Virus record (IMG/VR): IMGVR_UViG_3300025653_000035
Span: 1,094 to 65,093 of that record
DNA from: a virus
Taxonomy: Duplodnaviria > Caudoviricetes
Reading direction: 5' to 3' (one strand)
Length of the DNA: 64,000 nucleotides
Each line of letters begins with the position of its first letter. Positions within the stretch are counted from its first letter, which is position 1. Below, piece by piece: positions 11,952-30,870 of this stretch. A program made the position numbers and the translations under genes. The notes under the pieces were generated by a model. The model was given only the letters and a program-made list of their open reading frames with translations, was not told the DNA's origin and made no database searches.

Positions 11952-12618
11952 AGAGTTCCAGTTTATCTCTAACAAACTTTCTAATGTATTTGCCGAGTAG
12001 TTTGATGTACTTTGATTTGTCTCGTTCTTCATAGACGACGCATTCTCCATTTTCACAAGCCATGATGATTACAAGTTTTTTGACTGAGATGCCAGTCAGT
12101 TCATACAGCATACAACCATATGCCATGCACTGTACAAAGTAGTGGTCAATCCACTCTCTAGGTTTTGGTTTTTTTGATGTCTTGAAATCGATTATAGCTA
12201 ACTCGCCGTCATATTCAGCGATACAATCAACAGTCCCTGCTACACCTAGTTGTTTACTATACAGAGACCCTTCAAGGGCGTAAATATTATTTATACGATT
12301 TAAATCTGTCTTTGAAATTTTGAAAAGAAAGTCAGAGATTGGTTGAACTTTGGGAAGATCTTCATTTTTGAGATGATGTTCTACGAGAGTGTGCATATCG
12401 GTTCCACGACTTGTTGCCGCTTTTGTAATCCGATCTGCTTCTTCATTACCAACTTTTTTTCGCCACTTTACAAAAATCTCCTTATTAAAATGACTGGTCA
12501 CCGATGTAATGGAGACCAGTCGTAGGAGTTCTTCTTCATCTGGAACTTTGTAATATCGTACACCATCAATGGTTTCACGGTCCAGACTAGGAAGATCAAC
12601 ATTTACATGATTAAACAT
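11938..12618 (-). CDS. PD-(D/E)XK exonuclease (Cas4/lambda-exo-like, conserved in cyanophages)
   Basis: SITSV; RGTDMH; AGTVDCIAEYDGELAIIDFKTS; YFVQCMAY. Confidence 0.85.
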   Translation of the reverse strand: MFNHVNVDLPSLDRETIDGVRYYKVPDEEELLRLVSITSVTSHFNKEIFVKWRKKVGNEEADRITKAATSRGTDMHTLVEHHLKNEDLPKVQPISDFLFKISKTDLNRINNIYALEGSLYSKQLGVAGTVDCIAEYDGELAIIDFKTSKKPKPREWIDHYFVQCMAYGCMLYELTGISVKKLVIIMACENGECVVYEERDKSKYIKLLGKYIRKFVRDKLELYGTQ

Positions 12619-13376
12619 TAAAAACCTGCTTCCATTTTTGCGATGATGTATTCTTTGACAAGTCCAGAGCGAACAATATCATCAACACCAAACTCAATTA
12701 TATCAAATGATTCCATTTTACGCAAGACATTCATAAAATCATGAATACCATTTTTTTCATTTGCTTTCTGTAAGTCAGACTGTGAAGAGTCCCCACAGAA
12801 ACAAATTTTGGTGTTTTCCCCGACACGAGTAATAATAGAATCTAGTTCATGGAAGTTTAGATTCTGATACTCATCCACAATAACAATAGCATTGTCAAGA
12901 GTAGTTCCACGCAAGAATGAAGTGGACCAGAACTTAATAGATTCTTGAGATTTAAGGTTACCATACAGCATTTCAAAGTCAGCGTCAGAAGGCATTTGGA
13001 ACATATACTTCACCATATTCTTATAAGGAATCTGGTAAATATCTGCCTTATCTTCATGTGAACCAGGCAAGAATCCAATCTCTCTGGTTGCTACAAGGGA
13101 GCGTACAAGGTAGATACGCTCATAAGGTGTATTCTCACTCAAAACATCACGAAGTGCATTATAAAGAGTAATAAAGGTCTTACCAGTACCTGCACAACCA
13201 TAAGCAACGATGTGTTTACCTTCATCATATGAATTAAAAAGGCGTTTTTGATTTTCTGTCAGCGGTTCAATATCAATCAGGTATTCCTGACTGAGTGGTT
13301 TTTTTCGCTTCATCTGCTTTGCCGTGAGTCCAACCCCGATAGGTTGCTCTGCAGATGCTCTCTTTCTTCTTGCCAT
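12618..13376 (-). CDS. phoH: PhoH-family ATPase
   Basis: GCAGTGKT Walker A; IGFLPG; FLRGTT; IVDEYQN; GDSSQSDL; DIVRSGLV. Confidence 0.95.
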   Translation of the reverse strand: MARRKRASAEQPIGVGLTAKQMKRKKPLSQEYLIDIEPLTENQKRLFNSYDEGKHIVAYGCAGTGKTFITLYNALRDVLSENTPYERIYLVRSLVATREIGFLPGSHEDKADIYQIPYKNMVKYMFQMPSDADFEMLYGNLKSQESIKFWSTSFLRGTTLDNAIVIVDEYQNLNFHELDSIITRVGENTKICFCGDSSQSDLQKANEKNGIHDFMNVLRKMESFDIIEFGVDDIVRSGLVKEYIIAKMEAGF

Positions 13377-13383
13377 AGGTTAC

Positions 13384-13632
13384 TCAGATTTTTTTAACTC
13401 TTGATCCTGGTGCTTTTGATGCTTTTTGAAGAACGTCATTCCATCCAGGATTTTTAGCGACGAGTTTATCTCGCCACTCTCCTACTTCCCCAGGTTGAGG
13501 ACAAGTTGATGGATCTGACCAATCCCGTTGCCAATCAGGATTGTCTTCTTTCCATTGATCCCACTCGTGAACACTTAATGTCACCTCTTTTTGTTCACCA
13601 GTTTCTTTATGAATAACAGGGTATGTTGCCAA
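13384..13632 (-). CDS. Conserved cyanophage protein (MATYPV..., TTG start)
   Basis: Strong SD AGGAGG before TTG; ends GWNDVLQKASKAPGSRV. Confidence 0.7.
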   Translation of the reverse strand: MATYPVIHKETGEQKEVTLSVHEWDQWKEDNPDWQRDWSDPSTCPQPGEVGEWRDKLVAKNPGWNDVLQKASKAPGSRVKKI

Positions 13633-13662
13633 AATCTCACCTCCTAAATGATATGAACTTAT

Positions 13663-14298
13663 TTAGACCCACTCCAGTGCTTCTGCCACTGTTGGGAACT
13701 GCTCTGCAAAGATAGTCTTACACTGCTCTGCAATCTCCATATGCTCCTTCTGGGTGCCGTTAGCAGAACGCAGTTGAATGTAGTGAATCCAGGAACGGCA
13801 AGATCCCGACATGTACAAGCGAGTCGGAGTTGCCAGAGGAAGCACAAAGCGAGCACACTCTTTCGCCACGCCCATATCAAGCATTGATTGGTAAAGCACC
13901 ATTGCTTCATCAAAGTGCTTCCTCATTTTGATCTCGAACTCCTGCTTAACGAAAGGATCAATGTCGTCAATAGAATTTTGACGATTCTTGGTGTCCTGAC
14001 GGCGAAGTTCTGGGAGCGGGATCGTCTCCGAGAGTAGGGAAGAATCAGCATAGCGTTGCGAAAACTCTTGATATGTGAAACTACGGTGACGCAAAATCTG
14101 AGCTGCCAGACCACGAGTAGTCTCAATCTCCAGAGTCATAAAACTCTGTTCAAACACAGACCAGTGGTTGTGCTTGATACAATAACCCAATAACTTGGCA
14201 TAGTTGGGGTTTTCCTGATTATTTGGGTTCGACACTCTGGCAACATATGCCATTGTCTGCTCCGCATCAGGAGTTACACTAACCAGTTTTACGCTCAT
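13663..14298 (-). CDS. thyX: Flavin-dependent thymidylate synthase ThyX
   Basis: HWSVFEQ; QILRHRSFTYQEFSQRY; ECARFVLP; GTQKEH. Confidence 0.96.
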   Translation of the reverse strand: MSVKLVSVTPDAEQTMAYVARVSNPNNQENPNYAKLLGYCIKHNHWSVFEQSFMTLEIETTRGLAAQILRHRSFTYQEFSQRYADSSLLSETIPLPELRRQDTKNRQNSIDDIDPFVKQEFEIKMRKHFDEAMVLYQSMLDMGVAKECARFVLPLATPTRLYMSGSCRSWIHYIQLRSANGTQKEHMEIAEQCKTIFAEQFPTVAEALEWV

Positions 14299-14489
14299 TG
14301 ACCAAATCCTTTCGATACTTTTTTCTCTAGTTCTGCGAGTTCTTCTTCTAACACTCGCAGTTGTTGTTTCATTTCAATAATCTTTTCAGTACTATAAAGA
14401 TGCTCCTGTTTAATCAGTCTACGAAGCAACTTCATATACTTTCTTGCTCTATCAGTCGGGATACCCATCGTCGTCCTCAAAGATTTCAT
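14295..14489 (-). CDS. Small conserved hypothetical (start possibly MGIPTD)
   Basis: QEHLYS...SKGFG; ATGA-coupled to thyX. Confidence 0.6.
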   Translation of the reverse strand: MKSLRTTMGIPTDRARKYMKLLRRLIKQEHLYSTEKIIEMKQQLRVLEEELAELEKKVSKGFGQ

Positions 14490-14622
14490 CGTAATCGTGC
14501 AAACTCTGCCTCACCTCATCATAGTTCATATAACTTTGAGTATCAGAGTATACTTCTGCTTTGAGAGAATCTACTAGAAGTTCAAGATTACGAACGATTA
14601 GTTTTAGTTTGTCTCGTTCCAT
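14452..14622 (-). CDS. Small acidic conserved hypothetical (56 aa, absent from track)
   Basis: Hand translation MERDKLKLIVRNLELLVDSLKAEVYSDTQSYMNYDEVRQSLHDYDEIFEDDDGYPD. Confidence 0.7.
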   Translation of the reverse strand: MERDKLKLIVRNLELLVDSLKAEVYSDTQSYMNYDEVRQSLHDYDEIFEDDDGYPD

Positions 14623-14645: not shown

Positions 14646-14683
14646 ATTTTAGCATAAAAAAAGAGGGGTGTGAACCCCGCTCT
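14646..14683 (-). terminator. Intrinsic terminator whose loop is the -35 of an overlapping sigma70 promoter
   Basis: GAGCGGGG-TTCACA-CCCCTC-T7 hairpin; TTCACA-N17-TAAAAT with TGn extension. Confidence 0.7.
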
Positions 14684-14700: not shown

Positions 14701-14865
14701 TCACTTATTATAAGTATGACCACGATAGCAGAAGGTGCCGTGGGTTTCCCCTTCACCTTGCTTGCACTCATACTGAACACCACGATAGGATGTCATATGA
14801 ATTTGTGCGTCGTGAAGTGCAGATGCTTTTTCAATCTGCTTTTTGATCATGTTAAGTGTGTTCAT
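14701..14865 (-). CDS. YRG-motif (DUF4278-like) peptide, 54 aa, absent from track
   Basis: MNTLNMIKKQIEKASALHDAQIHMTSYRGVQYECKQGEGETHGTFCYRGHTYNK; two YRG motifs; SD AGGAGA. Confidence 0.8.
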   Translation of the reverse strand: MNTLNMIKKQIEKASALHDAQIHMTSYRGVQYECKQGEGETHGTFCYRGHTYNK

Positions 14866-14899
14866 GGTTGTCTCCTGAAATACTAAGGTTAATTAAAAC

Positions 14900-15124
14900 C
14901 CGTTCCTTCAGTCGTTTGCGTCCCAATAGCAGTGAGGAACAGATTCCTTTACGGTCTCTACCAATTCTACTACCACTGCTGGCGGTAGATCTCGGTTTTT
15001 ACTGATCTTTATCATTAAAGATTCAGCATCCTGACATGAAATTGTAGAATACAATAGTAGTTCTAACATGGGATGAACGCTCCGTTCCGCGACTTACTTG
15101 CGTCAGAGTTTCCTCTGATGAACG
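14900..15124 (-). ncRNA. Glutamine riboswitch-like (glnA / Downstream-peptide family) element with ORF-containing loop
   Basis: CGTTC-A-TCAGAG-GAAA-CTCTGA-CGCAAGTA-AGTCG ... CGACT-GAAG-GAACG-G; P1, P2, P3 pairings read by hand; begins ~7 nt after a -10 box. Confidence 0.8.
14908..15069 (-). CDS. 53-aa ORF nested inside the riboswitch (ends YWDAND)
   Basis: MLELLLYSTISCQDAESLMIKISKNRDLPPAVVVELVETVKESVPHCYWDAND; GGAG 10 nt upstream of ATG. Confidence 0.65.
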   Translation of the reverse strand: MLELLLYSTISCQDAESLMIKISKNRDLPPAVVVELVETVKESVPHCYWDAND

Positions 15125-15131
15125 TACAGGT

Positions 15132-15160
15132 ATTATATACCTTATGTGGATATTTAGCAA
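15132..15160 (-). promoter_or_regulatory. Sigma70 promoter TTGCTA-N17-TATAAT driving the riboswitch transcript (contains CTAAATA late motif)
   Basis: Hexamers 15160-15155 and 15137-15132. Confidence 0.8.
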
Positions 15161-15198
15161 CTATAAACTGTATAATTTGATACAAAACCTTACAGGTC

Positions 15199-15229
15199 AA
15201 AAAAATGCTGAGAAAATTTCCCAGCATTT
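15199..15229 (-). terminator. Intrinsic terminator after 15236..15595
   Basis: AAATGCTG(G)GAA-ATT-TTC(T)CAGCATTT hairpin followed by a T-run. Confidence 0.7.
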
Positions 15230-15235
15230 ATCAAA

Positions 15236-15595
15236 TCACTTTTTCTTTTTGGTTTGAGGTGGTTTTGCTCCCCAGAGTTTGGGATTATGCCTGCCCATAC
15301 CATACTCAATGCTTTTGAGTCCGTCACGAAATTTATCCCAGTACATATCAAAGATATTAACTGCTTTCTGACTACGAGTTAGATCATAACGAAGTTCACC
15401 ATCAACTTCATACTTAACAATCCTAGCATCATTGGGGCATTCTTTTGTGGTCACTTGATCCCAAGTACCATTTTCAATCATAATCTCCACACCATATTTT
15501 TGTTTGGAGTTTTCTTTTTCGGATGCTGACCAGGAATACATAGGATTATTCTCTACTGATGTCTGTGTAGACATCTCTGCGACGTTTTTTGTCAT
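15236..15595 (-). CDS. Conserved cyanophage hypothetical protein
   Basis: YDLTRS...IFDMYWDKF...YG.G..NPKLWG; intact ORF in operon. Confidence 0.7.
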   Translation of the reverse strand: MTKNVAEMSTQTSVENNPMYSWSASEKENSKQKYGVEIMIENGTWDQVTTKECPNDARIVKYEVDGELRYDLTRSQKAVNIFDMYWDKFRDGLKSIEYGMGRHNPKLWGAKPPQTKKKK

Positions 15596-16432: not shown

Positions 16433-16651
16433 CTACTTTTTCTTTCTCATTTTTAGAGAAAATTCAAAATAGATAGTTACTTCCCTTTTTAAGAAGCAAA
16501 CCATCTTTTCAAAAATAATGTGAAATGGTTTTGATTGCTTCTTTCCTCCATTAAGAATAAGTTCAACACCACGATTTACATCGCGGATCTTAGATTTATT
16601 TATGTGTTGATTAGATAACTTTTTCTTCTCTGAGAAACTGAATGGTGTCAA
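16433..16651 (-). CDS. Small basic hypothetical (start uncertain)
   Basis: ORF in operon behind glutaredoxin. Confidence 0.5.
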   Translation of the reverse strand: MTPFSFSEKKKLSNQHINKSKIRDVNRGVELILNGGKKQSKPFHIIFEKMVCFLKREVTIYFEFSLKMRKKK

Positions 16652-16847
16652 CGCATCCTCCTATCTTTTTATCATCACATAAAACTTGTGGGAATGTAGA
16701 ACCCTCCCCAAATGTATCATAAAACTCTTGCCGTGTAAAGTCTCTGTCAAGTTTATACTCAACAAATTTCTTACCAGTCATTTCCAAGACTGTCATTACC
16801 TTAGTGCAATAAGGACATCCTGTTTTTGAATATACTAAAAATTTCAT
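16611..16847 (-). CDS. nrdC: Glutaredoxin
   Basis: CPYC; TFPQV; IGGCVD. Confidence 0.9.
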   Translation of the reverse strand: MKFLVYSKTGCPYCTKVMTVLEMTGKKFVEYKLDRDFTRQEFYDTFGEGSTFPQVLCDDKKIGGCVDTIQFLREEKVI

Positions 16848-30579: not shown

Positions 30580-30870
30580 CTAGGAAGGTTTAGTTGGCCA
30601 AACAACATCTAACATATTAGTATAGTTTTGAGGAACATCTCTCAGTTCTTGTCTATATGTTTGCCATGCAATTTTAGTTGCTTCTGGAACATCGGGCAAT
30701 TGAGTCCAATCAGTCTCAGAAATTCTTCTATCTCGTTCACTTCTCAACCAATTCATATCATCTTCGGAAGTAGGAACTGGTCCTGATTCTTCTGAAGATC
30801 TTGCTGCATTGACATTCATTCTTGCAATATCTTCTACAAGTATTTGCTGATATCTCTCGGATGAAATCAT
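30580..30870 (-). CDS. Phage tail assembly chaperone
   Basis: LRSERDRRISETDWTQLPDVP; WQTYRQELRDVP; WPTKP. Confidence 0.75.
   Translation of the reverse strand: MISSERYQQILVEDIARMNVNAARSSEESGPVPTSEDDMNWLRSERDRRISETDWTQLPDVPEATKIAWQTYRQELRDVPQNYTNMLDVVWPTKPS

Follow-up and report, generated by a model that had tools for sequence, protein, structure and literature searches.

A candidate composite glutamine riboswitch of cyanophages, with two nested cores on one helix and a conserved gene inside its fold

A 225-nt RNA element on the minus strand of a T4-like cyanomyovirus (positions 15124-14900 of the 64,000-nucleotide stretch analyzed here, hereafter the window) is probably a composite glutamine riboswitch at the 5' end of its transcript, in which two nested aptamer cores share the helix P3 and which would bind and switch in the manner proposed below. 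This reading draws in part on the downstream gene, which is DUF4278-like and hence of the kind that usually partners glutamine riboswitches. Covariation in relatives shows a nested long-range fold, within which lies the coding sequence of a small conserved phage protein. Riboswitch aptamers are usually treated as compact non-coding domains ahead of the genes they control, and the glutamine riboswitches known so far, which lie in 5' UTRs, measure about 60 nt.

All the pieces that an earlier note had assembled from this DNA are located in the element, and a direct read of the minus strand, to which the features below belong unless stated otherwise, bore out their coordinates and strand. The 5' half comprises CGUUC (15124-15120), A, the hairpin UCAGAG-GAAA-CUCUGA (15118-15103), CGCAAGUA (15102-15095) and AGUCG (15094-15090), and the 3' half CGACU (14914-14910), GAAG (14909-14906), GAACG (14905-14901) and G14900. 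As a joined pattern these pieces match the window only once, at 14900-15124 (-), and match none of 100 dinucleotide shuffles. Between the halves lie two further pieces absent from that note, a second GGAACGG (15088-15082) and a second CGUUCA (15079-15074), the latter with its 3' end 4 nt upstream of the ATG of a 53-codon ORF (hereafter ORF-B). An 800-nt region matches 417 phage records, all of them Synechococcus or Prochlorococcus cyanophages, the best at 70-78% identity. The neighboring genes at 12618-14622 and 16611-16847 (-), assigned by eye from translations only, encode a PhoH-like ATPase, a ThyX-like thymidylate synthase, a glutaredoxin-like protein and several small phage ORFs, which are typical cyanomyovirus cargo. 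As relatives we used 80 viral contigs fetched via the enclosed protein and 80 fetched via the DUF4278-like protein; all complete loci share the order CGUUCA, a variable P2, GACGCAAGUAAGUCGCGGAACGG, AG, CGUUCA, UCCC, ATG, ORF, UGGGACGCAAACGACUGAAGGAACGG.

Two three-way junctions and the gene they enclose

The RNA is built of two three-way junctions, one at each end of a single 5-bp helix, P3. The outer core has the element order P1o-A-P2o-CGCAAGUA-P3-GAAG-P1o', which is the glutamine-I layout, and around the far end of P3 the same order recurs as CGUUC-A-P2i-CGCAAA-P3-CG-GAACG, with P1 capped by a GAG loop. P3 pairs AGUCG (15090-15094) with CGACU (14910-14914), the latter taking in the final sense codon together with the first base, U, of the UGA stop. 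In a 65-sequence alignment two positions of this helix have changed from G-C to A-U on both strands, and wherever a locus holds both strands no pair is broken from one side only; the wider locus set also contains eight intermediates with G.U, and in two of its loci the outermost pair is A.C. The earlier note had proposed P3 as a pairing across the ORF, with the ORF as its loop: the pairing itself stands on this covariation, but the ORF is not a plain P3 loop, since P3 opens into the second three-way junction and it is the inner P2, not P3, that closes directly around the ORF.

Both P2 helices occur with a variety of pair types. Outer P2, at 15103-15118 in the window, is found as 47 distinct strand pairs with positions 1-3 paired in every one, and its observed stem length was reached in 0 of 1000 partner shuffles. 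The inner P2 pairs UCCCA (15069-15073), which includes the A of the start codon of ORF-B, with UGGGA (14921-14925), which lies in the codons for W and D. Positions 1-4 of this helix are paired in all 50 distinct strand pairs (the types being U-A, C-G, G-C and U.G), partner shuffles again attained the observed stem in 0 of 1000 trials, and the 65-sequence alignment contains changes of U-A to C-G and U.G and of C-G to U.G. In some relatives the helix is divergent (e.g. GUCUAUG/CAUAGAC or UCCUAUG/CAUAGGA) and brings the start codon into pairing beside the stop codon. In the window the outer P2 is a plain hairpin with no enclosed ORF; in 64 of the 141 loci where P2 could be traced it instead closes over a long distance around a further ORF, 65-75 codons in length. 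The helix covaries freely, as UCUCAUG/CAUGAGA, UCUUAU/AUAAGA, UCACU/AGUGA and UCCAA/UUGGA. This additional ORF (e.g. in L006, L019, L024 and L049) spans from about 250 to 35 nt upstream of the ORF-B start, has both its start and stop codons inside the closing helix and encodes a conserved protein of 65-75 aa that is hydrophobic at its N-terminus and has two cysteines and the motif PYGWHMSCERF.

In contrast to the freely varying helices, the junction strands hardly change. The outer strand CGCAAGUA (15095-15102) is invariant in the relatives, and the GAAG opposite it (14906-14909), which overlaps the stop codon of ORF-B and matches the Rfam glutamine-I consensus GAAGGAACG, departs to AAAG in company with a UAA stop. 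The inner strand CGCAAA (14915-14920), which carries a second CGC, is frozen at synonymous sites, those of its GAC and GCA region having zero variation among 65 distinct ORFs, and it is retained where the ORF terminates earlier.

The ORF thus bracketed (ORF-B, 14908-15069) ends in WDAND followed by the stop codon and is a conserved cyanophage gene (phrog_504, 2.5e-23). Its 75 homologs are all small and unnamed, the sole named source being a Synechococcus phage. Over 65 distinct ORF sequences the diversity at the three codon positions is 0.23/0.10/0.40 in the body, the pattern expected of a protein under selection, and falls to 0.03/0.06/0.015 in the last five codons and the stop. The drop in the third position from 0.40 to 0.015 indicates that the synonymous sites of GAC, GCA, AAC and GAC are held by the RNA, and the rare AAU and GAU codons at the end of the ORF are exactly those that are compensated in the 5' strand of P3. 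Thus, the suggestion that the last codons of the ORF double as the 3' strand of the aptamer is sustained by both the frozen synonymous sites and the P3 covariation, and the nested ORF is a conserved gene with a selected codon pattern. The GGAG at 15083-15080 is likely to be its Shine-Dalgarno sequence.

Relationship to the known glutamine riboswitches

Neither the 64-kb window nor any of 20 diverse relatives matched an Rfam family at its gathering score. Both the glnA and the Downstream-peptide models, with which the native sequence was to be searched by Infernal, therefore stayed below threshold: under relaxed thresholds the best match to RF01739 scored 21.9 bits against a gathering score of 35 (15126-15079), and that to RF01704 scored 12.4 bits against 33 (14944-14893). 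The RF01739 alignment closes P1 locally with the nearby GGAACG, a closure rejected by the covariation considered below. The RF01704 match is an accident of codon choice, its GUUCC (Val-Pro) reading GUACC or GUGCC in most relatives. It arises from a local pairing of AAUCUGUUCC with GGAACGGGUU (14897-14947, -), which dominates the single-sequence fold and is not conserved, its Val codon being GUA or GUG in most relatives. Two further candidates were set aside: a second glnA-like site on the plus strand (CGTTCA at 30734, CGGAAGTA at 30765) is antisense inside a coding gene and is a chance occurrence, and an rli33 match of 22.4 bits at 15133-15260 (+) spans an upstream terminator and an AU-rich spacer and is regarded as spurious. 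Among the matches listed for the 15-mer GGAACGGAGCGTTCA in cellular genomes there were only chance ones in unrelated bacteria, with no bearing on the hosts.

In the structure of glutamine-II, the residues C1-C5 form a helix with G36-G40, triples involve G35 and G18, a further pair joins C19 to G41, and the ligand lies against C1:G40, G18 and C19 (PMC6698751). CGUUC, CGC and G-GAACG-G with a C19:G41-type pair are present twice in our element, once in the outer and once in the inner core, and by this correspondence both cores keep every glutamine-contacting nucleotide of the solved glutamine-II structure. By analogy the CGC of CGCAAGUA would correspond to the ligand-site strand C17-G18-C19, with the AGUA that follows forming one half of an E-loop, and G14906 would correspond to the G35 triple. 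The only P1 position that varies is the fifth pair, equivalent to C5:G36, for which no ligand contact is described (PMC6698751). From glutamine-I come the topology and the near-invariant E-loop strands AAGUA (15099-15095) and GAAG (14909-14906) that flank P3. The proposed glutamine-I layout holds, in that P1, P2 and P3 form a three-way junction in the proper order with covariation for all three outer helices. The G-C linchpin of glutamine-I, between the junction G and the C after P1, is absent, and C15100 and G14900 stand in its place; the swap of these two bases claimed in the earlier note is thus real, but it is the standard C19:G41 pair of glutamine-II (PMC6698751) rather than a new compensation. 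Equally absent is the glutamine-II pseudoknot, in which the 5' CGUUC pairs with a 3' hairpin loop, because covariation places both CGUUC/GAACG helices in a nested arrangement. Hence, judged from its residues and pairings, the RNA combines a glutamine-I topology with glutamine-II core residues.

Like the glutamine-I riboswitch (RF01739) of the Synechocystis gifB/IF17 leader (PMC6212724), the element has a P1/P2/P3 three-way junction with a CGUUC...GGAACG P1 and AAGUA/GAAG strands, stands at the 5' end of the mRNA for a DUF4278-like protein and has a 3' tail with the linchpin base that can pair near the ribosome site. It differs from glutamine-I in that its linchpin is C:G rather than G:C, its P3 opens into a second core, it spans 225 nt with a translated gene inside, and it scores 21.9 bits against the required 35. 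With glutamine-II (the Downstream-peptide RNA, RF01704, PMC6698751) it shares the CGC linker with a C19:G41-type pair, the G-GAACG-G strand, a host range of marine picocyanobacteria and their phages, and an association with short ORFs and DUF4278-like genes; unlike glutamine-II it has no pseudoknot, its GGAACG strands are fully nested, and its short ORF lies within the RNA fold rather than downstream, where Downstream-peptide RNAs have theirs (PMC2864571).

Although the nested fold could be real with only the outer core sensing glutamine, the inner one then being a duplication-derived scaffold that holds the ribosome site of the enclosed gene, we consider this unlikely. It is true that the inner junction has no E-loop, its linkers being CGCAAA and CG as against CGCAAGUA and GAAG, and that inner P1 is capped by a tight GAG triloop, of whose mere 3 nt one is needed as the linchpin G, so that the loop may be sterically tight. 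However, the inner CGC does not vary at synonymous sites and persists where it is non-coding, the first loop base is G in all the inner-loop variants seen (GAG, GAA, GAAC, GAUU and GAGU; G15082 in the window, at the position of the inner linchpin G, whose partner would be C14918), and glutamine-II riboswitches bind without an E-loop (PMC6698751). Sub-threshold Rfam scores and an architecture far from any validated aptamer would also fit a leader that is structured and conserved yet binds no glutamine, such as a stability, translational-coupling or protein-binding element with vestigial aptamer motifs. We regard such a leader as quite improbable: the ligand-contacting positions are invariant in two cores over hundreds of loci while the adjacent helices vary freely, and a DUF4278-like gene is linked to the element, as in the known glutamine switches.

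Nested versus tandem pairing of the P1 strands

Numbering the two CGUUC and two GAACG strands from the 5' end, a tandem arrangement would pair strand 1 with 2 and 3 with 4, and a nested one would pair 1 with 4 and 3 with 2. The consensus strands are compatible with either arrangement, so we sought variants of the two 3' strands in viral contigs and counted distinct elements. The consensus CGUUC/GAACG/CGUUC/GAACG (strands 1/2/3/4) was found in 90 distinct elements, CGUUC/CAACG/CGUUG/GAACG in 65, CGUUU/CAACG/CGUUG/AAACG in 8 and CGUUU/GAACG/CGUUC/AAACG in one. In all of the approximately 75 distinct variant elements the strands form 5/5 Watson-Crick pairs if nested and 4/5 if tandem. The fifth pair of outer P1 (CGUUC 15120-15124 with GAACG 14901-14905, the 3' strand being followed by the linchpin G14900) changes from C-G to U-A in 9 distinct elements, always together with the distal strand, and the closing pair of the inner P1 hairpin G-GAACG-GAG-CGUUC (15075-15088), G15087-C15075, is replaced by C-G in 73 complete, distinct elements and in 11 more that are cut by a contig end; the fifth pairs of the two helices vary independently of one another. 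As these variants are perfect only in the nested pairing, it is the long-range P1 that selection has kept, and GAACG-GAG-CGUUC forms a hairpin locally. The long-range pairing of 15124-15120 with 14905-14901, first put forward from a single sequence, is hence borne out, and compensatory changes in relatives, the check asked of it, were found in P1 as in P3. Single-sequence energy minimization yielded only local hairpins, inner P1 among them, and recovered none of outer P1, P3 and inner P2, whereas RNAalifold, run without a supplied structure, recovered P3, inner P1 and inner P2.

This comparison also bears on the view that the element consists of two ordinary tandem aptamers, the first closed by 15124-15120 with 15087-15083 and the second by 15079-15075 with 14905-14901, with the ORF in the P2 loop of the second. 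Such pairing is possible where the four P1 strands are identical, as in the window and most relatives; Infernal aligns the first unit in its locally closed form (21.9 bits), and that unit, being transcribed first, may form transiently; tandem glutamine riboswitches are common, with 157 doublets reported (PMC9481103); and four relatives (L012, L013, L130 and L135) possess the second unit only, as CGUUCA-UCCCAUG, the ORF and UGGGACGCAAACGAC..GGAACGG. It is nevertheless very improbable, given that the fifth pair of both units is mismatched in every variant element, where the nested pairing is perfect, and that the covarying AGUCG/CGACU would be left as a pseudoknot without a counterpart in the second unit. 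The four single-core loci look as though a deletion had run from one CGUUCA repeat to the other, or else as though they preserved the ancestral state.

Returning to the nested fold, its resemblance to tandem riboswitches (the glycine and glutamine doublets, PMC9481103) lies in having two homologous cores for one ligand in one leader, an arrangement that may sharpen the response; unlike them, it places one core inside the P3 of the other, and the two share this helix, each strand of which is 5' in one core and 3' in the other. In the literature covered, which does not include Ames and Breaker 2011, we found neither nested cores sharing a helix nor a gene inside an aptamer hairpin. The chances are about even that nested glutamine-binding cores with a shared helix, together with translated genes inside aptamer hairpins, constitute an architecture not described before.

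Transcription unit, proposed mechanism and implications

A -10 hexamer TATAAT (15132-15137) lies 7 nt ahead of the first CGUUC, at the distance at which the earlier note had placed it, and a promoter scan pairs it with a -35-like hexamer TTGCTA (15155-15160; 10/12 matches, spacer of 17 nt) where relatives have TTGACT; transcription is likely to start at about 15125, to judge from the promoter position. An inverted repeat, AGGTATATAATACCT (15128-15142, -), surrounds the -10 box and ends 3 nt ahead of the first CGUUC. Of the 147 distinct flanks compared upstream of the element in relatives, 143 have a repeat of at least 4 bp at this position. Its arms covary (GGTC/GACC, TATG/CATA, TGTC/GACA and GGAG/CTCT), and it could be read as a DNA operator or as a transcribed hairpin abutting P1. 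Further upstream, a strong terminator-like hairpin AUGCUGGGA...UCUCAGCAU with a U run (15199-15227, -) stands just 3' of the preceding gene (15595-15236); it is missing from the output of the simple terminator scan. At the other end that scan detected a terminator-like hairpin, GGGGUUCACACCCC, with a U run at 14656-14678, which is likely to mark the end of the transcription unit. As this hairpin follows the DUF4278-like gene, the unit reads as a transcript of about 470 nt and looks like a structured leader with the 53-aa gene and the DUF4278-like gene.

The latter gene (14701-14865) encodes a 54-aa IF17-like protein that matches phrog_545 (5e-33) and, beneath the Pfam cut-off of 25.3 bits, DUF4278 (E 8.5e-4, 20.1 bits); four homologs at 80-84% identity carry PF14105. 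In the minimum free energy (MFE) structure of the isolated 3' tail, CUGAAG (14911-14906) pairs with UUUCAG (14880-14875), covering only the first two bases of the Shine-Dalgarno sequence AGGAG (14876-14872). This alternative helix is in the MFE structure of 74 of 75 distinct tails as against 41% with the segment ahead of the Shine-Dalgarno sequence shuffled, a contrast to be read with the high shuffle baseline and the relatedness of the tails in mind. At the position of the UGA/UAA difference its pairs are G-C in 42 cases, G.U in 30 and A-U in 5, and wherever the stop is UAA (CUAAAG) the facing strand reads CUUUAG. The same tail structure contains a small hairpin GGGUU...AACCU (14886-14901), which takes up G14901 and G14900 when the aptamer is unfolded; a GGG...CCC hairpin covaries at the matching site in relatives. 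Many relatives (e.g. L004, L009, L125 and L128) have an insert of about 30 nt, composed of AAAACGGAUCC, a small covarying hairpin and GAGAAGGUUAA, between the GGAACGG of the aptamer and the ribosome site of the DUF4278-like gene.

On this basis we propose that L-glutamine would be bound by both cores, and that folding would hide the start region of the enclosed gene, its Shine-Dalgarno sequence in inner P1 and its AUG in inner P2. Conversely, each ribosome translating that gene would unfold the whole sensor: a 30S subunit at its start, or a ribosome at its UGA (14910-14908), would be incompatible with the inner core, P3 and outer P1, so that folding and translation of the enclosed gene should be mutually exclusive on any one molecule. 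We infer this competition between ribosome and ligand from the anatomy of the RNA. It recalls leader-peptide attenuation, as in the trp and his leaders, where the pairings open to the RNA depend on whether a short ORF is being translated; here, unlike in those leaders, the ORF is a conserved gene for a 53-aa protein instead of a codon-biased sensor peptide, and the competitor is a metabolite aptamer-like fold. Folding would further withdraw CUGAAGG from the alternative helix at the ribosome site of the IF17-like gene. In the gifB switch the linchpin base and its neighbors pair with the ribosome site until glutamine binds (PMC6212724), and this likeness suggests an ON switch, in which high glutamine would turn on the IF17-like gene. 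Termination of translation at the enclosed stop codon would likewise open the alternative helix, and the direction of control of the downstream gene is therefore uncertain.

If the composite riboswitch operates as proposed, a conserved protein gene lies within an aptamer fold with two sensor cores on one shared helix, and ligand sensing and translation would be physically coupled on a single RNA. Such a leader would integrate the level of a metabolite with ribosome traffic and, while a cyanophage infects its host, would set how much of the enclosed small protein is made relative to the downstream IF17-like regulator. Hundreds of sequenced marine cyanophages have this layout, which Rfam-based annotation misses, and hence the use of host nitrogen signals by phages has probably been under-counted. 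Since the element precedes a gene that is likely to be glutamine-synthetase-factor-like, whether phages read and reset the nitrogen status of their hosts becomes directly testable.
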